NCBI GenBank assembly: GCA_964594755.1
Contig: CAZQMO010000003.1
Coordinates: 2,516-66,515 of the forward strand
From: an uncultured Candidatus Saccharibacteria bacterium
GTDB taxonomy: Bacteria > Patescibacteriota > Doudnabacteria > UBA920
DNA length: 64,000 nt
Direction: 5' to 3'
Under the pieces are notes generated by a model that had not been told where the DNA came from, searched no databases, and worked only from the letters and a program-made list of their open reading frames with translations. Both the position numbers and the translations under genes were made by a program. The stretch's first letter is position 1, and each line of letters starts with the position of its first letter. Shown one piece after another: positions 12,301 to 58,576 of this stretch.

Positions 12301-12333
12301 CTCCCTTCCGCCATCTGGCGGAGGGAGTTTTTT
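12301..12333. terminator. bidirectional intrinsic terminator
   Basis: Hairpin ctccctTCCGCCatctGGCGGAgggag followed by TTTTTT, between convergent genes. Confidence 0.7.
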
Positions 12334-27621: not shown

Positions 27622-28004
27622 CGGGGATGCCGGATTTTGACAGAACTTTGACATCATTTCATATACAAGCCGAGCCAGCTTGCAAGCTCGTAAATCTTAC
27701 AAGCATTCATACGTGCTAACGCATGGAACAAGGTCGTAGCAGCATTTTCTGCTGACTACGCACCTGCTGTAGCCTAACTTAGGTGAAAGCGCAGTCCTGT
27801 TGTCTACTCCGGCCACAGAGTCACTGCTTTATTAGGAGTTATAGCTGCGTCGTTTGATTAACGCGACTCAGCCGAATAGTTGTTAATCAACCTTTAGTTT
27901 AGTTGTCCGTTGTTAGACTAAAGGCACTTAAACGGACTAAGCTTGTGACCAATGAGATGGTGAACCAGTTTTGGACGCGGGTTTAACTCCCGCCATCTCC
28001 ACCA
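27622..28004 (+). ncRNA. ssrA: transfer-messenger RNA (tmRNA)
   Basis: 5' GGGGATG pairs with 3' CATCTCC-A-CCA, including G3:U70. The 3' end GGACGCGGGTTTAACTCCCGCCATCTCCACCA is nearly identical to E. coli tmRNA. An internal tag-like frame ends ...AAFSADYAPAVA-TAA. Flanked by a consensus promoter and a terminator. Confidence 0.85.
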
Positions 28005-47940: not shown

Positions 47941-49707
47941 CTAAGGCAATATGATATAAGTACCATCAACTTTAGCCCAACTACCACCTGGACCATTAGA
48001 AAAAGTAGCACTGGCTAAACCTGATTGATAGGTAATAGTGGAGTTATTGCTCATATTTATTCCGTAACCCGTCAGTTGTGATGCGCCAGCATTATTCGAA
48101 ACCATAATATATCCGCTGGTAGTGTAATAGATTGCACCAGCAGTGTTATTGCTTAAATTGATGGCTCCCGAACCACTCTTAGCTGAGATTACTAGAGGAA
48201 AACTGTTTGGAAAATTATTCCCAACAATCTGCGCATTATTGGAAATTGTGATAGCACCAGAACCGGAAGGATTATCAGGATTGTCGGCCAGTAACACGGT
48301 CCCATTATTACCCAGACTGGCATCAATTCTCACAAAAGAATTATTACTTAAATTAATATTTCCTTTAACCCAAACCGGACCAGTTAAATACAACACGGAA
48401 TTATTTGATAGCGTTAAATTACCATTGATATATAACGGACCAATTGTCTGAGTAGAGCCACCAGAAATATTATAGTCACCATTATGAGTTCCACCACTTT
48501 GCGCTACTGCCTTCCATTCATCTATTTGCGCTTGAGAGATAGGCATATTTTGTTTAGGCGAGTCCGGGGTACCCGAATAACTATTACCCGAAACACTACA
48601 TGAATTCGATGATGCATAATACGCATCCCCTCCAATACTACAACTTGGTCCAATTAAAGTATTTGCTCTCACATTTCCTGTTACATTAACGCTTTGTAAG
48701 CTAGTGGTAACTCCACCAATATAAATTTGGAAATTAGCATCACGATTAATCGCGGTCCAAGGTGGTGACGACCAGCTACTTGCATGCTTTGCAGTTCCAT
48801 TCGTACAACCATCAGCAGCATCCACGGCCCAACTGTAATAGTTACTCGTACTACTTGAAGTATCTAGTACCAACCAATAATTAGTACCGGCGGTAAGGTT
48901 AGGTGAACTAGAAAAGGTAGCGTTAATCCAACCATAACTCGTAGTAACCGAGGAGCTGGTGATAGTACCCGAACCTCCTACTTGACTAGAACTTGGTGAA
49001 CCACTGCTATCAGTAGTAACTCGAACTGTAATATTGCTAGGTGAACCGGTTTTTTTTAGATAAACACTTACCTGGGTTAACGGACCGCTAATAGTTGGGG
49101 TAAATCTTTGGGCAACATCGCGGCGGCTTGTTGCATTAAAGTCAAAATTGCCATTATTAGTGTTACACTGTTGGTCTAAAGTTGGTGAACCTCCCCCTGC
49201 TACAGTAGCATCGCCACTAATAGTAGCGGCCCAGCCAGAGATATTACCATTAGAGTAAACATTACCGTTCACAATGGAGTTATTATTCATCACTAACCCA
49301 CCTTCTCCGACTTGCACACCAAAGTTAAAAGCCACGCTCGACAGATCAATACTTACGTTCATCTTTACACTCACCTGAACCTGTGGATCGCTCATGGAAG
49401 GTATATATCCAGTGGACAAAATTTGTTTGTTATTCGAATCAATAGTAGTGACAGTAGTAGTATATTCCCCTGGACCAAGGGTATCTGACTCCCCGTTAAA
49501 TGAAGAATCATTATTTAGCTCTGCGATAGCTTTATCAATGCCAGCCTCTGCTAACTGCAAAGCCTGACTGCGTTCTACTGCCTGACGACTAGCCTTCACT
49601 TGAATATGGGTGTATCCCCAAAGTGAGGCGGACATGGTCATTAAAATAGACATAATTACTATACCCAGAATTAAGACCTGACCTTGTTGCGATTGCATAT
49701 GTGTCAT
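47941..49707 (-). CDS. PilX_N-domain pilus-associated protein with Asn/Ser-rich beta-helix-like body
   Basis: 588 aa. N-terminal TM plus PilX_N-like segment (GQVLILGIVIMSILMTMSASLW...LQLAEAGIDKAIAELN), then repetitive N/S/G-rich sequence. Confidence 0.55.
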   Translation of the reverse strand: MTHMQSQQGQVLILGIVIMSILMTMSASLWGYTHIQVKASRQAVERSQALQLAEAGIDKAIAELNNDSSFNGESDTLGPGEYTTTVTTIDSNNKQILSTGYIPSMSDPQVQVSVKMNVSIDLSSVAFNFGVQVGEGGLVMNNNSIVNGNVYSNGNISGWAATISGDATVAGGGSPTLDQQCNTNNGNFDFNATSRRDVAQRFTPTISGPLTQVSVYLKKTGSPSNITVRVTTDSSGSPSSSQVGGSGTITSSSVTTSYGWINATFSSSPNLTAGTNYWLVLDTSSSTSNYYSWAVDAADGCTNGTAKHASSWSSPPWTAINRDANFQIYIGGVTTSLQSVNVTGNVRANTLIGPSCSIGGDAYYASSNSCSVSGNSYSGTPDSPKQNMPISQAQIDEWKAVAQSGGTHNGDYNISGGSTQTIGPLYINGNLTLSNNSVLYLTGPVWVKGNINLSNNSFVRIDASLGNNGTVLLADNPDNPSGSGAITISNNAQIVGNNFPNSFPLVISAKSGSGAINLSNNTAGAIYYTTSGYIMVSNNAGASQLTGYGINMSNNSTITYQSGLASATFSNGPGGSWAKVDGTYIILP

Positions 49708-50276
49708 ATATTTCGTAAAAATATTGTTTGTTGCAAGTTAACTGTCACAGATTGATTACCACGATAATACGACCGGGTGGTTAAATTAATTGACACCTGA
49801 CTCGCTGCAGTTGGTGAAGGATTGTTATATGTTAAAGAAAAGGTTTCTAAGCTACCGGTGAGTAATTTAGTACTAGCTGGTCGGTCACTACCAACAGCTG
49901 GATCAATAATCTGATACAAACTCACTCCATCAGCAGTATAGACAATATAATCCGAGCTGCCAGAAATTAAATTGCCACTGCTATCGTAGGATGGTACTTG
50001 CACAATAACTGTAGAACTACTAGTGGAATAATCTGTACCACCGATATTCCGGCTGGCAACGATAGCGCTACCCTGGGCAAGACCAAAAGTCAAAGCGTTC
50101 ATAGCATTACGAGCACTACCAGTTGCTGCTATTTCTGCCTGCTCTAAATTGTAAACCTTTTGCTGCCAATCAAACATGTTGAGCAGTCCGAGAAGTAATA
50201 CTGCCATCAAAAAAATCACTATAATCATTTCAAACAAAGTAAACCCATTTTGTTTGTTTAGGCGGCCCAAAGTCAT
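49704..50276 (-). CDS. type IV pilin-like minor pilin/pseudopilin
   Basis: 190 aa. Prepilin cleavage/methylation motif GFTLFEMIIVIFLMAVLLLGL. Confidence 0.7.
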   Translation of the reverse strand: MTLGRLNKQNGFTLFEMIIVIFLMAVLLLGLLNMFDWQQKVYNLEQAEIAATGSARNAMNALTFGLAQGSAIVASRNIGGTDYSTSSSTVIVQVPSYDSSGNLISGSSDYIVYTADGVSLYQIIDPAVGSDRPASTKLLTGSLETFSLTYNNPSPTAASQVSINLTTRSYYRGNQSVTVNLQQTIFLRNI

Positions 50277-50671
50277 TTACCTAATCCTCCCTGCCATAAA
50301 TAAGTTGATAGACTAATCTGTTGGTTACCACTTGCTGAAGGATTACGCCAACTAACTGTCACAGTAGCTTGAGATAAACCAGTACTGATCTCACTAATAT
50401 CTAAACTGGCTGAACCTTGCGGTATAGAATTTAACTGACTATTGGTAAGTGGGCCTGACGAAGGTAGATTAGCGTAAGGAGTTGTGCGTAGCGCCTGTAA
50501 TTCATGTTCGGCCACCCTTAATGCAACCTCTTTATACCGGTTGTACTTGTTAAGAACTACTGCATTAGAAACAATGGCAAACATCAGTAAGGTTACGCCA
50601 ATAATGAATAAGGTCACCACGACTTCAAGGATTCCAAATCCTCGCTGCTGATTGTGATTTTTGATTAGCAC
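50273..50671 (-). CDS. type IV pilin-like minor pilin
   Basis: 132 aa. Prepilin motif RGFGILEVVVTLFIIGVTLLMFAIV. Confidence 0.7.
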   Translation of the reverse strand: MLIKNHNQQRGFGILEVVVTLFIIGVTLLMFAIVSNAVVLNKYNRYKEVALRVAEHELQALRTTPYANLPSSGPLTNSQLNSIPQGSASLDISEISTGLSQATVTVSWRNPSASGNQQISLSTYLWQGGLGK

Positions 50672-50789
50672 TTTTGTTTCCTAAGTAAATTCTCTCTATA
50701 TAATACCACAAAATCAGCCTAAAATCTAAGCTTTACTAGGTTGAATTATTTGTCAGATTTTGTTAAACTGTCTAAGTAAAATTGAATAT

Positions 50790-50840
50790 TCGGGAGTAGC
50801 TCTCCGCCAGCTGGCGGAGGTAGAGCTATCGGTGTATAAC
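50790..50840 (+). pseudogene. degenerate 5' fragment of tRNA-Asn (acceptor 5' strand, D-arm with inserted palindrome, anticodon 5' stem/loop)
   Basis: TCGGGAGTAGCTC[tccgccagctggcgga]GGTAGAGCTATCGGtgtataac matches positions 1 to about 38 of the tRNA at 51091, with a 16-nt palindromic insertion in the D-loop. It diverges after the anticodon loop. Confidence 0.55.
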
Positions 50841-50848
50841 AGTCTCTT

Positions 50849-51100
50849 ATGTATACCGTTTATGCAATCTACAATCGAAAACATGATAAAATCTACATTG
50901 GACAAACTCAGAACCTCAAAGAAAGGTTAAGGTTGCACCAATCCAAAATTTTCTTAGGATACACGTCACGGTACGATGGTAAATGGGAACTGATTTACCG
51001 TGAGTCATCTGCGACCAGACAGGATGCCTTGATAAGAGAAAAACAATTGAAAAGTTACCGAGGTAGGGTATTTATCAAACAATTTATTAATCGGGAGTAG
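50849..51100 (+). CDS. GIY-YIG domain nuclease (small, UPF0213/YhbQ-like)
   Basis: 83 aa. GIY-YIG motif YTVYAIYNRKHDKIYIGQTQNLKERLRLH. The last three codons (NRE-stop) are encoded by the 5' end of tRNA-Asn. Confidence 0.75.
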   Translation: MYTVYAIYNRKHDKIYIGQTQNLKERLRLHQSKIFLGYTSRYDGKWELIYRESSATRQDALIREKQLKSYRGRVFIKQFINRE

Positions 51101-51165
51101 CTCAGCGGTAGAGCTATCGGCTGTTAACCGATCGGTCCTGGGTTCGAATCCCAGCTCCCGAGCCA
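51091..51165 (+). tRNA. tRNA-Asn (anticodon GTT)
   Basis: Cloverleaf: acceptor TCGGGAG/CTCCCGA, D-arm GCTC-AGCGGTA-GAGC, anticodon arm ATCGG-CTGTTAA-CCGAT, T-arm CTGGG-TTCGAAT-CCCAG, discriminator G and CCA encoded. A terminator hairpin (51172..51196) lies downstream. Confidence 0.9.
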
Positions 51166-52848
51166 AGATAGAACATCAACATCAGAGTTGGTGTTTTTTC
51201 TTTTATTTACAACACGCTTTCCAGGTTCTAACTTGTCGTTATCATCTTCTTGTTCAAATACAGCTTTCTCAATCAATTTAAATGGTTGGGGTGCGTCTAT
51301 GCTAAGTATTCCGTCTTTCAGGACAATGTTCTGACCTAACGCTTTCAGAATAGCCTTCTGACGCTTTAAATCCTTACTCTTACGTGCTTCTTCAAACGAT
51401 GCCGAAGCTTTGCAAGCAAATGTTAATGTTTGCTCTGCAACTTCAAGCCATTGGTTCGGATTTGAATCCTCCTTATTGAGTTGTTCAAAATATCGCTGTT
51501 TATCCTTTTCTAATACAACCTTTTTATCCGCAAATTCTGCCTCATTAATCTCACCGCTAATTCTGAGGTCTAACAGCTTATCCAACTTTTTTACTGTCTC
51601 GTCATAAATGTTCTGCTGATTCTGTTTGATGCTTACCTGTGACTGATGCTGTAATTCATTCGATGCCCTCAAATGTTTAATGCCCCAATCTAAATATTTC
51701 TGATTTATTGTGATGCGCTTCAAATAACTTGCAATCTGACTTTCTAAATCCTCAGCTAAAATTGTCTTTTGGGAGCACTTATAATTTAGCTTTCGTTTAG
51801 TGCAGTGGTAATACTCATAATGAAGGCGCTTGGCAGTAACCATTTCCTCTATTTTTGATTTGCACTTGGGACACTCCGACTTGTTTTCGTAAGCAAACTT
51901 AAACTTGCACTCAGAGCAAATCAGCTGGTTCTTTATTTCAGCTGTTATCTGACAACCACATTCACCGCATAATATCTGACCCGTAAAAGCGAACTCTCTA
52001 TTTCTTGGTCTTGGTTTACCCTTGCCTCCTAATAATTCTTGAACTCTTTCAAACTCAGCTTTCGTAATCATGGGTTCGTGCGCTCCCTTAAACCACTCTC
52101 CACTGCCTTTTGGAAACTCAAACTCCCCGTAGTAAAACTCATTCGTGAAAATCTTATACAGAGCACTTAGTGATAACGGATTGTTACCGACCTTCCTCCG
52201 TTTCATTGTCCTGTAACCCCACTTGTTGTTAGCGGTATGCCAAATCTGCCTGACTGTATAATTTTCACTTAGCATCATGTCCCACATCCTTCTAACCATT
52301 ACAAACCTTACAGGGTCTCTTACTATAATTTTCGTGCCTTTCTGGCGGTCAGGCGTATTATCGTATCCACTCGGAGCAACCCCTGTTATCCAGCCATCTA
52401 AAACTTTCCTTCTAAAACCTCGCTTCACATTGTCAGACAAGTCCCGAACAAATTGGTTTGCCATGCCAAGCTCTACTGCCATCGTTAGCACATTATCTGA
52501 AGGCTTATAAACACTACTCAGGCTTTGGATTTGTTTAATTACCGATGTCTGTAACATCCAACTAACCCTGCCGCCGTCTATCGGGTTTCTGGAAAGGCGG
52601 TCTAATTTCCAACATAATATTCCCTGTGCCTCACCTTGTTCAATCCTGTCCAACACTTGGGCAAAAAGTGGGCGCCCTGGTTTTGTTGCTGACCTCTCTT
52701 CACTCACTACATCAATGACATTGAGCTCCATTCTATTTGCAAATACTTTAAGCTCTTCAATCTGAGATTCAACAGAAAGAACCTGACGGTCTTCCGCCTC
52801 GCTACTTTTTCGTGCATACAGAATGTATTTGATGGCTTCATTTTTCAT
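51124..52848 (-). CDS. large serine recombinase (resolvase/invertase N-domain + recombinase domain + zinc ribbon + coiled coil)
   Basis: 574 aa. Catalytic N-domain (YILYARKSSEAEDRQVLSVESQ...WKLDRLSRN) and a Cys4 zinc ribbon (CGECGC...CSECKFK..CPKCKSK). The last 14 codons (LSWLGSWDSNPGPIG) are antisense to the tRNA-Asn T-arm and acceptor, and the terminal codons before that overlap the tRNA's terminator hairpin. Confidence 0.85.
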   Translation of the reverse strand: MKNEAIKYILYARKSSEAEDRQVLSVESQIEELKVFANRMELNVIDVVSEERSATKPGRPLFAQVLDRIEQGEAQGILCWKLDRLSRNPIDGGRVSWMLQTSVIKQIQSLSSVYKPSDNVLTMAVELGMANQFVRDLSDNVKRGFRRKVLDGWITGVAPSGYDNTPDRQKGTKIIVRDPVRFVMVRRMWDMMLSENYTVRQIWHTANNKWGYRTMKRRKVGNNPLSLSALYKIFTNEFYYGEFEFPKGSGEWFKGAHEPMITKAEFERVQELLGGKGKPRPRNREFAFTGQILCGECGCQITAEIKNQLICSECKFKFAYENKSECPKCKSKIEEMVTAKRLHYEYYHCTKRKLNYKCSQKTILAEDLESQIASYLKRITINQKYLDWGIKHLRASNELQHQSQVSIKQNQQNIYDETVKKLDKLLDLRISGEINEAEFADKKVVLEKDKQRYFEQLNKEDSNPNQWLEVAEQTLTFACKASASFEEARKSKDLKRQKAILKALGQNIVLKDGILSIDAPQPFKLIEKAVFEQEDDNDKLEPGKRVVNKRKNTNSDVDVLSWLGSWDSNPGPIG

Positions 52849-52878
52849 ATCGCAACAAATCGTATCAGGTCTTAGGTT

Positions 52879-53097
52879 CTAATCAAGTCTATCTTCCTGT
52901 CTAACCTGTCGAACAAACCATAGACCATAAGTTAAACCTGAAAAATTATCGACTATAAACATTTCGGCTTCCTCTATACTCCCGAACCTTTTGTCAAAGC
53001 ACAGGTAAGCACCGCTCCATACACGGCACACCACTTCAAACTCGAAGTTTTCTGTTATGGGCACATATCTCAACTTAGTTGGTTTTTTTCGCTTCAT
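52879..53097 (-). CDS. hypothetical protein (mobile-element cargo)
   Basis: 72-aa ORF in the operon with the recombinase. Confidence 0.45.
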   Translation of the reverse strand: MKRKKPTKLRYVPITENFEFEVVCRVWSGAYLCFDKRFGSIEEAEMFIVDNFSGLTYGLWFVRQVRQEDRLD

Positions 53098-53100
53098 ATT

Positions 53101-53250
53101 TCACTCCATACGGCCATCATAGACAGCCTTAATTGCTCTTAAAACGGTCTCTGCTGCCTTTTTCAGCTCTGCATCGGTCAGCATTACTCCGTTATGTTCT
53201 TCCGCCCAAATCTGGGCGAATTCTTTTATCGCTTCATCGCTTATTTTCAT
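53101..53250 (-). CDS. small hypothetical protein (49 aa), unannotated
   Basis: Minus-strand ATG at 53250, translating to MKISDEAIKEFAQIWAEEHNGVMLTDAELKKAAETVLRAIKAVYDGRME*. The stop is 3 nt before the next ATG, and the start overlaps the upstream ORF by 4 nt (ATGA). Confidence 0.35.
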   Translation of the reverse strand: MKISDEAIKEFAQIWAEEHNGVMLTDAELKKAAETVLRAIKAVYDGRME

Positions 53251-53480
53251 TCCTTTTTAGTGTTAAAATTGTCCAAATTGTCCACTTGGTTGGAGTTTTT
53301 ATTGTCAGAATTGTCAGGTTTGTCAGTTTTTGGCTCTAATAGGTGTTCTGTCAGAAACAGATTCCAAGACAACCCTGATTTAGCCCTAAGCCGCTTCAGT
53401 GCCTCCCATGTATTTAGTGGTAAACGAATACTCCTGTTTGTGTATTGCTCATTTCTCATATACGCCATTACCATAGCCAT
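53247..53480 (-). CDS. ribbon-helix-helix-like small DNA-binding protein (tentative)
   Basis: 77 aa. SIRLPLNTWEALKRLRAKSGLSWN resembles RHH/CopG-type beta-strand-helix-helix. It is the first gene of the recombinase operon. Confidence 0.45.
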   Translation of the reverse strand: MAMVMAYMRNEQYTNRSIRLPLNTWEALKRLRAKSGLSWNLFLTEHLLEPKTDKPDNSDNKNSNQVDNLDNFNTKKE

Positions 53481-53864
53481 TACATATCAACATTCAGGCG
53501 CCACTTTTCCCTCTGATATCTAATAGCGATGGAATTAAATAGATTTATGAATGGTTAGAAGTTTAATCCATTACGAGGCATATCAGATGGCTGGGCAAGA
53601 GTGGCCAACTTGTTTTCCCAGCTTTCGCATATGACCCTTAATGACGGTAGGACTATGTTTTACAAGTAAGTCGCTAAGAAACTTGGTTTTAACCATTTTT
53701 TAAAACAACAACCCGTTAGCGAAAGACGACTTAACGCTGAACGGGTTGCTATTCTGTGTCGTCTTTCGAATTGCACTGCAAAAATAAAAATGCAGTGTTA
53801 TAACTGCATTCTTACATCAACTACCTATGGTTTATAGACACATTGATTGACCCTCAATGAATGT

Positions 53865-54464
53865 CTATCGAGTCTTGTTTCTTTTCCTGTAGACCCTTGC
53901 TTTAACAGCACCAGACCAATCCTTACGCTTCGATGGAGGTGGAACTTTTTTTGCCACCAGGATTTCTTTATATCCTTTGCCTTGTTTTTTACCCCATTCA
54001 GCCAAAAGCTTTTCGGTTGTCTCTGGGTCTCTTTCTGGTTGTATTTTCTTTCTCGTTCCTGGTATATGTGCGGGTGTCACTATGAACCATTTTTTCAAAA
54101 GGTAGTCTAAATCTCGTTGGGCAATGCCATAGTAAAAACGCCATTCAGTATAACCCCCATTGTCACGATTAACTCGTTTCAAAAAACCGATGAACGGGTG
54201 ACCCATATCAGGCTCAATGACTTCATTGCTTTCGATGTAGTCGGCAAGTATTTTATGCCACCAATAAGTGTTTGGTAATTTTAGCTCATCGATTAGCTTT
54301 ACTACATCCCGCTCAAAGCTAATCTTCTTCCTGCCAAGCTCATTGTAAGGCTTATTGTATTTGGCTCTAATTTCTTTAACTCCACTTTCGAAAGCACGCG
54401 ACCCAACCAAACTCCGAAATAATTTTAAACCTCTGCCAGCGAGGTTATTGTCGTCTTTTTTCAT
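53865..54464 (-). CDS. basic hypothetical protein (mobile-element cargo)
   Basis: 199 aa with a Lys/Arg-rich C-terminus. No motif recognised. Confidence 0.5.
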   Translation of the reverse strand: MKKDDNNLAGRGLKLFRSLVGSRAFESGVKEIRAKYNKPYNELGRKKISFERDVVKLIDELKLPNTYWWHKILADYIESNEVIEPDMGHPFIGFLKRVNRDNGGYTEWRFYYGIAQRDLDYLLKKWFIVTPAHIPGTRKKIQPERDPETTEKLLAEWGKKQGKGYKEILVAKKVPPPSKRKDWSGAVKARVYRKRNKTR

Positions 54465-54665
54465 AGGCCAATGATAACAGAAAGTCCAAACACCTGCGAG
54501 CCGATTTTACCCATAATTATTAACTTTTTTCACTACATTCCCATATACTTCGGCATATACTTTTTGCCCAAAAAAGCTTATAATAAAGCATATATCACAA
54601 GTTTAGTTTCTGAGCTTTAACTTTCAAAGAAATACCTGAAGCAGTCATTCTATCGATTTAATACT

Positions 54666-56339
54666 ATGCCAAAAAATTACGAAAACTGGGACAAAGAACA
54701 ACTTATTAACGAATTGAAACAACTTAGTAAGCGGAAAAAATATGGATTGGTTTGGGAGGACAAGCCAGAAGATGTAGTGGAGCAATGTAAATCAGAGCTT
54801 CCCGTGCTAAAAGAGGTTCGTAATAAAGCCATAAGCAAAAATAAATCAGGGGCTCAAAATATAATAATCGAAGGTGATAATTACCACGCTTTGTCAGTCC
54901 TCAATTACACACATCAGGGCAAGATTGATGTAATTTACATTGACCCCCCTTACAACACTGGCGCTAAGGATTGGAAATACAACAACGACTATGTGGACAT
55001 AAACGATGGCTATAGACACAGTAAATGGCTTTCAATGATGAGCAGTCGTCTTCGACTTGCTAAAAATCTTCTTAAGAAGAATGGAGTGCTCATATGTGCA
55101 ATAGACGAAAATGAGCTGGCACATCTGGGTGTTCTATTAGAAGAAATTTTTATAAATAAGCAGATAACCCCAGTAACGGTTGTGCATAATCCCAGTGGGA
55201 TTCAAGGAAAAAATTTTTCAAACAATAACGAGTTTTTATATTTTGTTTATGACGGCAAGAAAAAAAGTATCGCTTTAGAAGAGCGAGATGATGACGCAGC
55301 AGATGTTAGACCTTTTATCAATGGAGCTAAGGGAAATTCCAAAGGTTATTTAAGAGAGTCTGGCAATAATTCTTTTTATCCGATTTTAGTTCAGGATAAT
55401 AGAGTTATTGGTTTTGGTGATGTTTGCGACATAAATTTTCACCCTGGCTCACGGGTAATAAAAAAGGGGGAGGTTTCCGAGGTTTACCCTGTTGACGGTG
55501 ACGGTATTGAAAGAAAATGGCTTTTTTCTCGAAACTCGGTTGAGGAAATAATCAATGAACTAAGTGTCAAGATAAACTCTAAAACTAAAGAGCCTCAAAT
55601 CATCCGCACAAAAAATAGAATTAATTATAAGACAGTTTGGACTTCCTCGAAGTTTAACGCAAAAAAATACGGAACAGAATTAGTTAAGCACCTTCTCAAT
55701 AAGGATTTCCCGTTCCCTAAATCCGTATTTGCAGTGAGAGAAGCACTCAAAGCAGTAATACATCCGCAAGACGCACTAATACTTGATTTTTTTGCCGGGT
55801 CTGGCACCACAGGACACGCTGTAGCTCTGATGAACAAAGAAGACGGAGGTCAGAGAAGATTTATTTTATGCACTAACAATGAAGGCAATATAGCAACAGA
55901 GATAACTTATCCTCGTATCAAGGCGGTAATAGAGGGGCATAAATCATTACCAGAAATCACAAATGTGCCCAGTAACTTGAGGTATTATAAAACGAGCTTT
56001 GTCGGTGCTGGGCCTACTGATAAAAATAAAGTTTCTCTAACCAAGCAAGCTGTAGAAATGCTTTGTTTGAAAGAAAACATTTTTGACCCTATCAAAGAAA
56101 CTGACGAGATTAAGATATATAATAACCAAGGCAAATATTTAGGTGTCGCGTTAAGCGAGGATGATATCCCATTGCTAAAAAAGGAGATAAAGAAGCTTGG
56201 TGGCGAGTGGAGTGTATATGTTTTTTCATTGACTGACGATAATTACGAAGATGAATTCGCAGATTTATCTGACTTGGTTTCTGTAACACCAATACCAGAA
56301 GCTATTTTAAGAGTCTACCGAAGAATATTTAAGCGATAA
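54666..56339 (+). CDS. mod: Type III restriction-modification system methyltransferase (Mod), beta-class N6A/N4C MTase
   Basis: 557 aa. Motif IV IYIDPPYNTG precedes motif I LDFFAGSGTTGHA, the beta-class order. Directly followed by a helicase-type Res gene. Confidence 0.8.
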   Translation: MPKNYENWDKEQLINELKQLSKRKKYGLVWEDKPEDVVEQCKSELPVLKEVRNKAISKNKSGAQNIIIEGDNYHALSVLNYTHQGKIDVIYIDPPYNTGAKDWKYNNDYVDINDGYRHSKWLSMMSSRLRLAKNLLKKNGVLICAIDENELAHLGVLLEEIFINKQITPVTVVHNPSGIQGKNFSNNNEFLYFVYDGKKKSIALEERDDDAADVRPFINGAKGNSKGYLRESGNNSFYPILVQDNRVIGFGDVCDINFHPGSRVIKKGEVSEVYPVDGDGIERKWLFSRNSVEEIINELSVKINSKTKEPQIIRTKNRINYKTVWTSSKFNAKKYGTELVKHLLNKDFPFPKSVFAVREALKAVIHPQDALILDFFAGSGTTGHAVALMNKEDGGQRRFILCTNNEGNIATEITYPRIKAVIEGHKSLPEITNVPSNLRYYKTSFVGAGPTDKNKVSLTKQAVEMLCLKENIFDPIKETDEIKIYNNQGKYLGVALSEDDIPLLKKEIKKLGGEWSVYVFSLTDDNYEDEFADLSDLVSVTPIPEAILRVYRRIFKR

Positions 56340-56341
56340 TT

Positions 56342-58576
56342 ATGGCAATAAAACTTACGAATTATCAGGAAGAAGCTACGCAGGAGCTATTACAGGATAC
56401 ATCCAGACTTCTGCGTCAAAGTGGCAATAAAAAACTTGTGTTCAAAGCACCGACAGGCTCAGGCAAAACAATCACAATGGCTGAGTTCCTTGCACGATTC
56501 GCTGATGATAAGACACACGCTCCTTGTGCTTTCATTTGGACAGCCCCTCGACAATTACACGAACAAAGCAAGACTAAACTTGAACGCTATTTCGAGGACA
56601 CGAGAGCCATTGAATGTTCATTTTTTGAGGATTTAGAAGACCGACAAATCCAAGAAAACGAAGTCCTCTTTTTTAACTGGGAAAGTATCCGTCAAGAAAA
56701 TAACATTTATATCAAAGAAAACGAACAGGATAATAACCTGTCCAGCATTATCGAAAGAACGCGCGATGAAGGCAGGGCTATTGTGTTAATAATTGACGAA
56801 AGCCACTATCACGCACAAGCCGAAACCTCCCAAAATCTCATCACTGCAATATCACCGAACCTAACAATAGAAGTATCAGCCACTCCCGTAATGCAAAACC
56901 CTGACAAAATTGTCAGTGTTGATATCGAAGATGTGAAATCGGAGGAGATGATTAAAAAAGCAGTGGTCCTGAATGAAGATTTTAAAAATGTAATCAATAG
57001 AGGACGCACAGAAACTATAAATAGCGAACTTTCTAATAGCACTGATGACATCGTGCTGGCCGAAGCACTGAAAAAACGCCAAGAACTTGTTAAGGCTTAT
57101 AAAAAAGAAGGTGTCGATGTTAACCCATTGCTTCTCATACAGCTTCCAGACCGAAGAGGACAAGCTGACGAGGATAGGCAGACATTAATCATACAAACTC
57201 TGAGAGATAAACACGGCATAACTACTGACAACGGTAAGTTAGCTATTTACCTATCTGAAAACAAAGAAAACCTTGAAAATCTTTCACGCAACGACAATGA
57301 AGTGGAGGTGTTAATTTTCAAACAAGCTATTGCATTAGGTTGGGATTGTCCTCGTGCACACATCCTTGTCTTATTCCGTGAATGGCATAGTCCCGCATTT
57401 TCAATTCAGACACTCGGAAGAATTATGCGAGTATCTGACCCTGAGCAAGGATATTACAATACAGATATCCTAAACTATGGATATGTATATACAAATATTG
57501 ACGATATCGAAATCAAAGACGATATTGGTAAAAATTATGTCGTTACCAACACTTCCCATAGGATTCCTTCTTATAAACCAATCTCACTAATTTCATACCA
57601 TACAAAACGCCAGCGCGAGCAAACTCGTCTTAGCCCTGCTTTCACTAACATATTTATGAATGAAGCAAAAAAGAATAAGCTGGCGGCTAAAATCAAAGTA
57701 AAAGGTCAAAGTGTTCATCCAGCATTTATTACAGACTGGAAAGCGGGCAATGTCGATGAAGTATCAGGTCAACACTTAAAGGCTAACGCGAAAATAGACA
57801 CCGCAAGCGAAATTGATTTGCAAAGGTTGTTTGATTATTTCGCAAGGACAAGCCTAAGCCCTTTCCACCCCGAAGACCGTTCTGTTGGCAGAATGAAGGA
57901 AAGCATATACAAGTTTTTCGAAAAAGAGATGGATATGGATAGAACTACGGATTTTGCAACCATAATCAACTGTGCTCTGAGTGAGGATAACAAACCTCAC
58001 ATCTTAGCTATTATCGAGAATACGAAGCGTGAATACATCTCAGCAACACAACAGCAACAGAAGGAGCTGGTTGAAGAAAGTGGATGGGAAATACCTGAAA
58101 AAATTGTATTAAATGGTGATTACACGGAGCTGGATGCTAAAAAATCCGTGCTCAGTCCGACTTTCACCAACGAAAAGTGGAAATCCGAAAAATCCTTTAT
58201 CAGCTTTTTAGAGCAAAAAGGCAACAATGTAACTTGGTGGTTTAAAAACGGAGACCGTGATGCCACATACTTTGCAGTGCCATATAAAATGGGAAAAGAT
58301 TATTCTCCATTCTATGTCGACTTTGTCGTTCAAATGAAAGATGGAAGCATTGGTCTGTTTGACCCACACGGCATCCACCTAAGTGACTTCGGTGCCAAAT
58401 CTAACGGATTAAAGGTGTATGCTGAAAAAATGCGTAAGGAAGGCCGTGAAATTACTGCAGGCATAGTTGCAAACACTGATAGCAAAAACTATACAGGTCA
58501 ATGGATGATTTATGAGGGTGATGGTAAAGATGTCGTTGAAGGTGACTGGACTAACTGGAAACCACTGGAGTTATAA
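56342..58576 (+). CDS. res: Type III restriction enzyme Res subunit (SF2 helicase-nuclease)
   Basis: 744 aa. Walker A KAPTGSGKT and a DEAH-box (LIIDESHYHAQ). Start is 2 nt after the mod stop. Confidence 0.75.
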   Translation: MAIKLTNYQEEATQELLQDTSRLLRQSGNKKLVFKAPTGSGKTITMAEFLARFADDKTHAPCAFIWTAPRQLHEQSKTKLERYFEDTRAIECSFFEDLEDRQIQENEVLFFNWESIRQENNIYIKENEQDNNLSSIIERTRDEGRAIVLIIDESHYHAQAETSQNLITAISPNLTIEVSATPVMQNPDKIVSVDIEDVKSEEMIKKAVVLNEDFKNVINRGRTETINSELSNSTDDIVLAEALKKRQELVKAYKKEGVDVNPLLLIQLPDRRGQADEDRQTLIIQTLRDKHGITTDNGKLAIYLSENKENLENLSRNDNEVEVLIFKQAIALGWDCPRAHILVLFREWHSPAFSIQTLGRIMRVSDPEQGYYNTDILNYGYVYTNIDDIEIKDDIGKNYVVTNTSHRIPSYKPISLISYHTKRQREQTRLSPAFTNIFMNEAKKNKLAAKIKVKGQSVHPAFITDWKAGNVDEVSGQHLKANAKIDTASEIDLQRLFDYFARTSLSPFHPEDRSVGRMKESIYKFFEKEMDMDRTTDFATIINCALSEDNKPHILAIIENTKREYISATQQQQKELVEESGWEIPEKIVLNGDYTELDAKKSVLSPTFTNEKWKSEKSFISFLEQKGNNVTWWFKNGDRDATYFAVPYKMGKDYSPFYVDFVVQMKDGSIGLFDPHGIHLSDFGAKSNGLKVYAEKMRKEGREITAGIVANTDSKNYTGQWMIYEGDGKDVVEGDWTNWKPLEL

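Follow-up and report, generated by a model that had tools for sequence, protein, structure and literature searches.

A GIY-YIG nuclease cassette that duplicates the 5' half of tRNA-Asn in Patescibacteria and may spread by homing

We analysed a 64,000-nucleotide stretch of contig CAZQMO010000003.1 (the window), which comes from an uncultured Candidatus Saccharibacteria bacterium placed by GTDB in the Doudnabacteria. The region around its tRNA-Asn gene is one copy of a cassette that is widespread in Patescibacteria, the candidate phyla radiation (CPR). The cassette consists of a copy of the 5' part of tRNA-Asn that contains a 16-bp palindrome, followed by a small open reading frame (ORF) for a GIY-YIG nuclease that runs into the intact tRNA gene. 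Comparison with empty alleles shows that the cassette is an insertion that duplicates tRNA nucleotides (nt) 1–35 and keeps the tRNA whole; it is patchily distributed and can amplify. We consider it probable that this is a selfish, homing-type, free-standing GIY-YIG cassette which has colonised the gene for tRNA-Asn(GUU) in Patescibacteria/CPR, and its pattern across loci suggests that it may spread by homing.

The intact and apparently functional tRNA-Asn(GTT) of the window lies at 51091–51165 and has an encoded CCA end (ARAGORN; Rfam RF00005, 70.6 bits). The half-copy starts 301 nt upstream of it. The features of the locus are as follows.

50790–50802, plus strand: displaced copy of tRNA-Asn nt 1–13 (acceptor 5' strand, U8, A9 and D-stem 5' strand), identical at 13/13 positions to 51091–51103
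50803–50818, no strand: perfect 16-bp palindrome TCCGCCAGCTGGCGGA, standing for D-loop nt 14–16 (AGC)
50819–50835, plus strand: displaced copy of tRNA-Asn nt 17–35 (D-loop 3' part, D-stem 3' strand, anticodon-stem 5' strand and loop to T35), identical at 14/14 positions to 51107–51120, then TGT
50849–51100, plus strand: GIY-YIG nuclease ORF of 83 amino acids (aa), with its last three codons and TAG stop inside tRNA nt 1–10
50741–50769, plus strand: candidate native tRNA-Asn promoter, with -35 TTGAAT at 50741–50746, a 17-nt spacer and -10 TAAACT at 50764–50769
50835–50840, plus strand: -10-like hexamer TATAAC at the junction, 8 nt before the ATG
51170–51207, plus strand: intrinsic terminator-like hairpin and T-run after the tRNA; similar terminators stand behind tRNA-Asn in relatives

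The first block of the half-copy, TCGGGAGTAGCTC, is the same as tRNA nt 1–13, and the block at 50819–50832, GGTAGAGCTATCGG, is the same as 51107–51120, which corresponds to tRNA nt 17–30. The similarity extends through TGT (nt 33–35) or, with a 1-nt insertion admitted, as far as about nt 38. Both blocks were recovered independently by a repeat search (families D1 and D7). Since the two exact blocks are in register with their counterparts, 301 and 288 nt away, and the layout is repeated at 80 independent loci (see below), the match is far beyond chance. On its own strand, the half-copy folds as a long D-arm-plus-palindrome hairpin (-28.1 kcal/mol, z = -3.2). A Rfam scan of 50600–51300 at E values up to 10 returned only the tRNA.

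An earlier note on this DNA, made from the sequence alone, had described a degenerate tRNA copy with a 16-nt palindrome, an 83-aa GIY-YIG ORF between this copy and the tRNA, and a stop codon formed by tRNA nt 8–10. The copy and the palindrome are both present, but the copy is not simply degenerate, the palindrome being a conserved component and not a sign of decay. The ORF is likewise as described: it matches Pfam GIY-YIG, has no stop codon of its own before the tRNA and ends AAT CGG GAG TAG, which is built from tRNA nt 1–10 with nt 8–10 as the stop. The note had also considered that the upstream fragment might be part of a different conserved RNA; in the Rfam scan, the half-copy fits no other family.

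A scan of one genome per GTDB species gave 446 loci that encode a relative of the nuclease, and the best 80 were fetched and analysed; a profile search gave 688 cluster representatives at E ≤ 1e-10. The relatives number in the hundreds, are 82–90 aa long, come from Patescibacteria/CPR genomes and are annotated only as 'GIY-YIG nuclease family protein'. ARAGORN places a tRNA-Asn(GTT) on the same strand, starting where the ORF ends or shortly beyond, in 63/80 loci. In nine of the remaining 17, a group I intron (RF00028, above the gathering score) interrupts the tRNA-Asn, in three the contig end cuts it, and most of the other five show a tRNA 5' end at the ORF stop when inspected by eye; in all, at least 75/80 ORFs adjoin a tRNA-Asn gene. 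The earlier note had suggested a search for other GIY-YIG genes flanked by tRNA half-copies, and had regarded relatives without target duplication as evidence against it. A copy of the 5' part of the local tRNA-Asn is found upstream of the ORF in 80/80 homologous loci, and the duplication is thus kept in the relatives.

The overlap between ORF and tRNA is also a family trait. The stop codon is tRNA T8-A9-G10 in ~60 of 81 loci, and the other stop positions inside the tRNA are mostly TAG at ~nt 19–21 or TAA at ~nt 35–37, reached in other reading frames. The C-terminal 'IPR', 'IPG', 'IPL' or 'NRE' of the family is translated acceptor stem, and these residues vary because the ORF reads into whichever acceptor stem follows. 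Many contigs end within ~300 bp past the ORF, as expected at a repeat.

To find related tRNA-Asn genes irrespective of the nuclease, we scanned metagenomes with the 5' sequence of the window's tRNA, which gave 120 loci, 107 of them with enough upstream sequence. A GIY-YIG gene lies upstream of tRNA-Asn in 12/107 loci, whereas 95/107 have none there. Locus L110 has a tRNA identical to that of the window and an empty site, and the allele ...GCGGTCGCCTGTTAAGCG... is seen both occupied and empty. One tRNA allele is found empty, with an intron that encodes an HNH-type protein, or with the cassette.

Two pairs of loci with shared flanks locate the insertion. The occupied locus L125 and the empty locus L162 have ~95% identical upstream flanks right up to tRNA nt 1, and their alignment places the cassette and a second copy of nt 1–35 exactly after T35. 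Empty relatives with an uninterrupted tRNA-Asn, which the earlier note had called for, therefore exist, and its proposal that DNA entered the tRNA near the anticodon loop agrees with this pair. The new 5' half may have arrived with the element or been templated by the host gene. In the second pair, L194 (cassette) and L113 (HNH-encoding intron) are 97% identical upstream, and the half-copy of L194 takes the position at which the L113 tRNA starts; past the tRNA, the loci are not related. L141 and L137 were rejected as an occupied/empty pair, being homologous downstream only.

The left junction of the cassette is the insertion site of group I introns, since the homology of the half-copy ends where introns split tRNA-Asn in relatives. 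In about one-third of the 107 loci, DNA is inserted after CTGT (nt 35). ORF-less group I introns of ~190–250 nt make up some of these insertions; others, introns of ~530–650 nt, encode a 101–123-aa HNH-type protein just after the 5' splice site and have the ribozyme core downstream. In the HNH-encoding introns (L090, L097, L099, L112, L132, L153 and others), the ORF lies behind a TATAAT-like box, and L132 and L153 have the same tRNA allele as the window. Where relatives of the cassette bear an intron, it sits in the downstream tRNA, outside the GIY-YIG ORF. An intron-encoded ORF was rejected for the window, as no group I intron was found in 50600–51300 even at E values up to 10. Collaborative homing with the intron lacks support, in that occupied loci show no excess of introns. 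An integrase att duplication was rejected: the repeated part is the 5' half, and the tRNA 3' end is present only once in the window. The nuclease is all that the 301-nt unit encodes; the gene for a serine recombinase is close by, but beyond the tRNA.

The half-copy is closely matched to the tRNA beside it. Its nt 1–13 equal those of the genome's own tRNA in 43/49 scorable loci, despite 17 different acceptor stems, and at variable acceptor positions its identity is 0.92–0.98 to the own tRNA versus 0.38–0.47 to the tRNAs of other genomes. To the right of the palindrome, identity drops gradually and reaches background by ~nt 30; the half-copy of the window, intact to nt 35, is among the best preserved. 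One subgroup has the palindrome in place of nt 9–11, not 14–16. Divergent nucleases (30–55% identity) are accompanied by half-copies with other GC hairpins that start at nt 4/5, 7/8, 9/10 or 10/11, and in these subfamilies the half-copy is shorter (e.g., nt 1–11 in L194).

The protein encoded by the ORF matches Pfam GIY-YIG PF01541 with E = 1.7e-14 (54.3 bits, cut-off 22.6). The domain spans residues 1–69 of 83, and the family is 82–90 aa long throughout. Residues Y5, Y16, G18, R26, H30 and E64, the counterparts of the GIY-YIG catalytic set, are invariant in 24 sequences. An AlphaFold model (predicted local distance difference test score, pLDDT, 94.3; element order E-E-H-E-H-H) has the three-stranded sheet flanked by helices of the alpha/beta GIY-YIG fold. 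The top Foldseek matches are UPF0213 protein BH0048 (1zg2), Slx1 nuclease domains, the N-terminal domain of UvrC and the catalytic domain of I-TevI. Template-modelling (TM) scores are 0.56–0.69 for the UPF0213/Slx1 matches, with Slx1 domains at 0.6–0.7 and 25–31% identity. A profile search of the PDB ranks 1ywl best (E = 9.5e-4) and I-TevI at 7e-3, with small margins. The best reading of the sequence and the model is that of an Slx1/UPF0213-like nuclease consisting of a catalytic domain only, and the conserved residues suggest that the 83-aa protein is an active nuclease. In eukaryotes, Slx1 acts with Slx4 on branched DNA. A genomic-context lookup with the exact protein returned no record. Membership of a defence system was rejected, PADLOC giving only weak partial matches.

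The same 16-mer palindrome stands in the tRNA half-copy upstream of nearly all 80 homologous ORFs, and the others have near-identical GC palindromes. Its stem pairs in 100% of cells of the alignment, with two compensatory double changes and one U-G pair, while the tetraloop varies freely; TCCGCTGTACAGCGGA (L036) and TCCGGCAACTGCCGGA (L067) are examples of variants. The pattern TCCGCCNNNNGGCGGA has 88 copies in 410 kb of cassette loci versus 7 in 743 kb of mostly empty metagenome loci, and 6/7 of the latter are in occupied loci. Across all sequence analysed there are 97 copies, ~90 in tRNA pseudo-copies beside the ORF and ~5 solo. At cassettes, the 16-mer sits in the non-functional tRNA copy between the outer segment that matches the tRNA and the decaying inner segment; among such copies it is found at D-loop, D-stem, anticodon-stem and T-loop positions, and at six loci one 16-mer is nested in the loop of another. 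The type of hairpin co-varies with the nuclease subfamily. As judged by eye, the sequence fits neither a single 13-nt insertion nor a transposon with target-site duplication, and both were rejected as origins of the 16-mer.

Some copies of the palindrome lie elsewhere. A terminator-like hairpin of the window, AAAACTCCCT...GGGAGTTTTTT, has a one-mismatch copy, TCCGCCATCTGGCGGA, in its loop (12307–12322), at a long distance from tRNA and GIY-YIG genes. At L069 1563–1578, an exact 16-mer lies in frame within a gene resembling that for methionyl-tRNA formyltransferase (fmt), where it encodes residues IRQLAD; presumably it adds no length relative to Escherichia coli Fmt, and without a length change it may not be an insertion. 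In L019, a solo 16-mer is part of the tail of an ORF that resembles those for penicillin-binding proteins. The common 16-mer has arms similar to the five outer base pairs of an acceptor stem of the UCCGC type. The ORF of L125 has its own stop within TCCTGGTTAATCCAGGA, in the last 30 nt before the intact tRNA, and this hairpin looks as if both acceptor strands of another kind of tRNA-Asn had been connected through a short loop.

Several loci bear signs of activity and turnover. Tandem arrays occur in L043, L046, L072, L041 and L035, with two ORFs in L043 and further copies in L035; in L046, L072 and L041, the order is half-copy, ORF, half-copy, remnant and tRNA. L046 contains an internally deleted remnant, and L081 and L167 contain pseudogenes. 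As a test of vertical inheritance, we compared protein identity with tRNA identity and obtained a Spearman coefficient of 0.15. Protein identity barely tracks tRNA type (0.644 within versus 0.617 between types), and proteins next to identical tRNAs are just 59–70% identical across genomes. This weak correlation is suggestive only, since a tRNA reflects host phylogeny poorly. The IMG/VR viral contig collection yielded no relatives, and a phage origin was rejected on this ground.

These observations can be brought together in a homing model. By analogy with SegB (see below), the nuclease would break the unoccupied tRNA-Asn gene in its 5' third, at ~nt 4–16. The left end of the break, finishing in tRNA nt 1–13, would then invade the half-copy of an occupied allele, and synthesis would copy the palindrome, the decayed nt 17–35, the ORF and the new 5' half, after which the strand would re-anneal in the intact tRNA. 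The palindrome and the decay of the inner segment would prevent premature re-annealing, and the same heterology would break up or weaken a direct repeat that could otherwise delete the cassette. A full 5' half follows the cassette, and the essential single-copy tRNA-Asn thus stays functional. Self-cleavage and unequal repair would produce tandem arrays whose internal units start with nt 1–13 and the palindrome, as in L046 and L072. An RNase P cut at tRNA nt 1 would strip the stop codon from the mRNA and so may limit nuclease synthesis. The model would account for the identity of nt 1–13 to the local tRNA, for the fixed start of heterology in each subfamily and for the free decay of the inner segment; in this scheme, the palindrome may have a role in homing.

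Several points weigh against this interpretation. The cleavage zone at nt 4–16 is deduced from the place where hairpin heterology begins across subfamilies, and the target site proposed here is accordingly provisional. The protein is a bare catalytic domain and lacks the DNA-binding domains that confer specificity on I-TevI and SegB. The intact tRNA beside the cassette has the same sequence as empty alleles, which leaves self-immunity unexplained. No syntenic empty allele was found for the window's genome, as none of the fetched loci has its flanks and only the tRNA and the terminator match; the pairs L125/L162 and L194/L113 served as surrogates. Introns, which would disrupt a target near nt 35/36, are present in ~13% of the 80 genome loci and in 3/12 occupied metagenome loci, versus ~36% of empty loci. 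The wide conservation of an intact ORF (median identity ~62%) could also reflect a host function. A further weak point is the 16-mer, which behaves partly as an element in its own right: simple homing would not predict that its sequence is conserved, that it is nested or that rare solo copies exist.

One alternative, which we regard as unlikely, is that the cassette is an immobile relic of a tRNA-Asn group I intron that carried the GIY-YIG ORF shortly behind the 5' splice site and whose ribozyme part was replaced by an intronless 5' exon, e.g., through recombination with a copy of the spliced RNA or with another allele; it would now be inherited vertically and lost sporadically, with no current homing. 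The half-copy does end at T35, the exact point at which group I introns split the tRNA in relatives, and in HNH introns the 5' splice site is immediately followed by the ORF, with a TATAAT-like box in front of it, a layout that the GIY-YIG ORF shares. There is also a weak N-terminal NCBIfam match to group I intron endonucleases. However, none of ~37 interrupted tRNA-Asn genes has a GIY-YIG ORF within its intron, and in divergent subfamilies the half-copy stops at nt 11–18, not 35. An old neutral relic does not readily explain why nt 1–13 match the local tRNA perfectly in deeply separated lineages, nor does it readily explain the tandem arrays and the near-absence of host-clade structure in the protein. 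Rather unlikely, in our judgement, is a host-beneficial or regulatory CPR gene, immobile and co-transcribed with tRNA-Asn, whose tRNA-like leader and hairpin control expression or RNA processing. An intact ORF with invariant catalytic residues in hundreds of species, the conserved overlap and hairpin, the cellular nature of the nearest solved relatives (UPF0213 and Slx1) and the lack of relatives in the viral contig collection all agree with such a gene. Against it stand the occupation of just 12/107 similar tRNA-Asn loci, the occurrence of the same tRNA allele with and without the cassette, the existence of pseudogenes, remnants and tandem duplicates, and C-terminal residues that are set by whichever acceptor stem follows.

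The behaviour of the 16-mer invites the quite improbable view that the 16-bp GC hairpin is a mobile micro-element with the GIY-YIG protein as its structure-specific nuclease, which would cut hairpin loops or tRNA-like DNA folds and leave the tRNA fragments as collateral of cutting and templated repair. The near-confinement of the 16-mer to nuclease-carrying contigs, the six nested loci, the presence of 16-mers in several arms of pseudo-tRNAs, the copies in the terminator loop at window position 12307 and inside genes, the co-variation of hairpin type with subfamily and a fold closest to the structure-specific nuclease Slx1 speak for it. Yet solo copies are few (~5 in 470 kb), the fmt copy entails no length change and may not be an insertion, and insertion of a fixed sequence by a GIY-YIG enzyme has no known mechanism; moreover, co-inheritance with the cassette explains most of the association. 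A broader version, also unlikely, is that hairpin and minimal nuclease form a new kind of mobile system, in which the nuclease recognises hairpin or cloverleaf DNA folds, both in tRNA genes and in its own palindrome, and templated repair of the cuts spreads either the full cassette or the 16-bp hairpin alone. This would explain nested hairpins, hairpins in D-, anticodon- and T-arms, solo copies and the colonisation of both Asn and Lys tRNA genes. Finally, slippage or unequal crossing over can yield direct repeats around a short segment, and the locus might have been a one-off partial tandem duplication of the tRNA next to an unrelated small ORF. Such a local accident is barely credible and is refuted by the recurrence of the same architecture, palindrome and ORF family at 80/80 fetched loci from many CPR lineages.

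We therefore retain a selfish homing cassette as the preferred reading and compare it with known systems. SegB of phages T4 and T6 is a free-standing GIY-YIG homing endonuclease encoded in a tRNA gene cluster (PMC2330249; PMC13096335). Its cuts fall within tRNA genes of the phage and cause segB and a tRNA gene to undergo segmental amplification (PMC13096335). As in the cassette, the GIY-YIG gene is not in an intron and stands beside tRNA genes; SegB cutting leads to preferential inheritance and tandem amplification, and the arrays in L043, L046 and L072 parallel its amplification of nuclease and tRNA. Presence or absence at one conserved locus, as expected of Seg-like enzymes, is polymorphic here (12/107; L125/L162; L194/L113), whereas their combination of a catalytic with a separate DNA-binding domain is lacking. 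SegB has ~220 aa with a C-terminal DNA-binding part, while the cassette protein has 83 aa and the catalytic domain only. Moreover, SegB is phage-borne, but the cassette is chromosomal in CPR and has no relatives in the viral collection. Duplication of a tRNA half, use of a tRNA's UAG as the stop codon and a conserved palindrome are not known from SegB cassettes.

The second close parallel is fungal. In the mitochondria of Allomyces, Paquin et al. (1994, 2000) reportedly described an insertion at atp6 with a free-standing GIY-YIG ORF, which duplicates the displaced end of the host gene and is accompanied by G+C-rich double-hairpin elements. Such insertions resemble the cassette in lying inside an essential gene, replacing the displaced portion, leaving a pseudo-fragment beside it and having GC-rich hairpins in an AT-rich genome. 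They differ in that a protein-coding gene is the target and its 3' end is replaced by an in-frame fusion, whereas the cassette targets a tRNA gene, duplicates a 5' half and resides on a bacterial chromosome. The cassette most resembles SegB and these fungal endonuclease insertions that duplicate gene ends, and is distinguished from both by five features: a minimal single-domain nuclease, a duplicated tRNA 5' half, a borrowed stop codon, a conserved palindrome and a location on CPR chromosomes.

Introns and UPF0213 proteins offer looser parallels. Free-standing F-CphI is said to home collaboratively with a psbA intron (Zeng et al., 2009), and the cassette is similar in that a free-standing nuclease adjoins a gene able to carry an ORF-less intron. 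Group I introns, together with their homing endonucleases, are known from bacterial tRNA anticodon loops (review PMC3984707), and their presence in CPR tRNAs has been mentioned in passing (PMC8172020). Their insertion site in relatives is the left junction of the cassette after T35, and some encode HNH endonucleases; unlike in these, the ORF of the cassette is outside any self-splicing intron and the adjoining tRNA is usually intronless. UPF0213/COG2827 proteins (EF2693, 1ywl; BH0048, 1zg2) and the Slx1 domain are closest by profile (E ~1e-3) and predicted fold, and the former are also single-domain proteins of ~80–100 aa. UPF0213 proteins have no established function, and the open-access literature yielded no tRNA-linked genomic context for them. 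We found no published description of a GIY-YIG/tRNA-Asn cassette in the open-access literature, and the arrangement is apparently undescribed so far.

If our interpretation is correct, a selfish element of ~300 bp parasitises an essential single-copy tRNA gene in CPR without disabling it, and keeps the function of its target by partial gene duplication and not by splicing. It would borrow the universally conserved U8-A9-G10 of the tRNA as a stop codon, and homing specificity would exist without a DNA-binding domain. The tRNA-Asn gene is a hotspot for which three kinds of selfish element compete: introns without an ORF, introns that encode an HNH protein, and GIY-YIG cassettes. The cassette would explain why contigs of CPR metagenome bins often end at tRNA-Asn, and it accounts for the many 82–83-aa proteins annotated as 'GIY-YIG nuclease family protein'.

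The locus also has candidate signals for transcription. The candidate promoter at 50741–50769 lies ~20 nt before the half-copy and has the same geometry as the promoters of unoccupied tRNA-Asn genes; it scores under the threshold of the promoter scan and was read from the sequence, and it may represent the native tRNA-Asn promoter. The junction hexamer TATAAC is possibly a promoter for a leaderless mRNA. A -10-like hexamer with at least 5/6 matches occurs 4–10 nt before the start codon in 21/80 loci, versus 5.5% of random positions, with a peak at 6 nt. A promoter of its own for every cassette was rejected, because a strong -10-like box is present in only these 21/80 loci.

Related structures were noticed at other tRNA positions. 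L118 (1750–2640) holds a mirror-layout version on tRNA-Lys: a 5' pseudo-copy with the 16-mer is followed by the intact tRNA-Lys and then by two GIY-YIG ORFs, each of which reads into a pseudo-tRNA-Lys (nt 8–76). These pseudo-copies have the 16-mer in the anticodon stem and once also in the T-loop, the second copy thus containing two 16-mers. A tRNA-Asn lies behind the tRNA-Lys array. L032, L068 and L031 have 3'-half tRNA copies with a palindrome in the T-loop. In L033, L156 and L172, a second small, divergent GIY-YIG gene lies downstream of tRNA-Asn, and short GC hairpins directly follow the tRNA-Asn 3' end (L033 3300–3400, L156 810–845 and L172 10420–10470). The hairpins are flanked by the duplicated last 7–9 nt of the tRNA, as in GCGGAGCC-hairpin-GCGGAGCCAC, which occurs twice in L033.

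On its 3' side, tRNA-Asn of the window is adjoined by a minus-strand gene for a 574-aa large serine recombinase with Resolvase, Recombinase and zinc-ribbon domains, whose ORF extends with its tail into the 3' end of the tRNA. Two unannotated ORFs come next, and after them a type III restriction-modification pair (DNA methylase, 54666–56339; Res helicase, 56342–58576). This side (51124–58576) looks like an integrated island, but the search for an att repeat was negative. The cassette is directly preceded, at 47941–50671, by three consecutive minus-strand genes; the two nearest encode N-terminal prepilin-type methylation motifs and are type IV pilin-like, and the third encodes a 588-aa Ser/Thr/Asn-rich protein. 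A gene for transfer-messenger RNA (tmRNA) with a 20-residue tag is located at 27623–28004.

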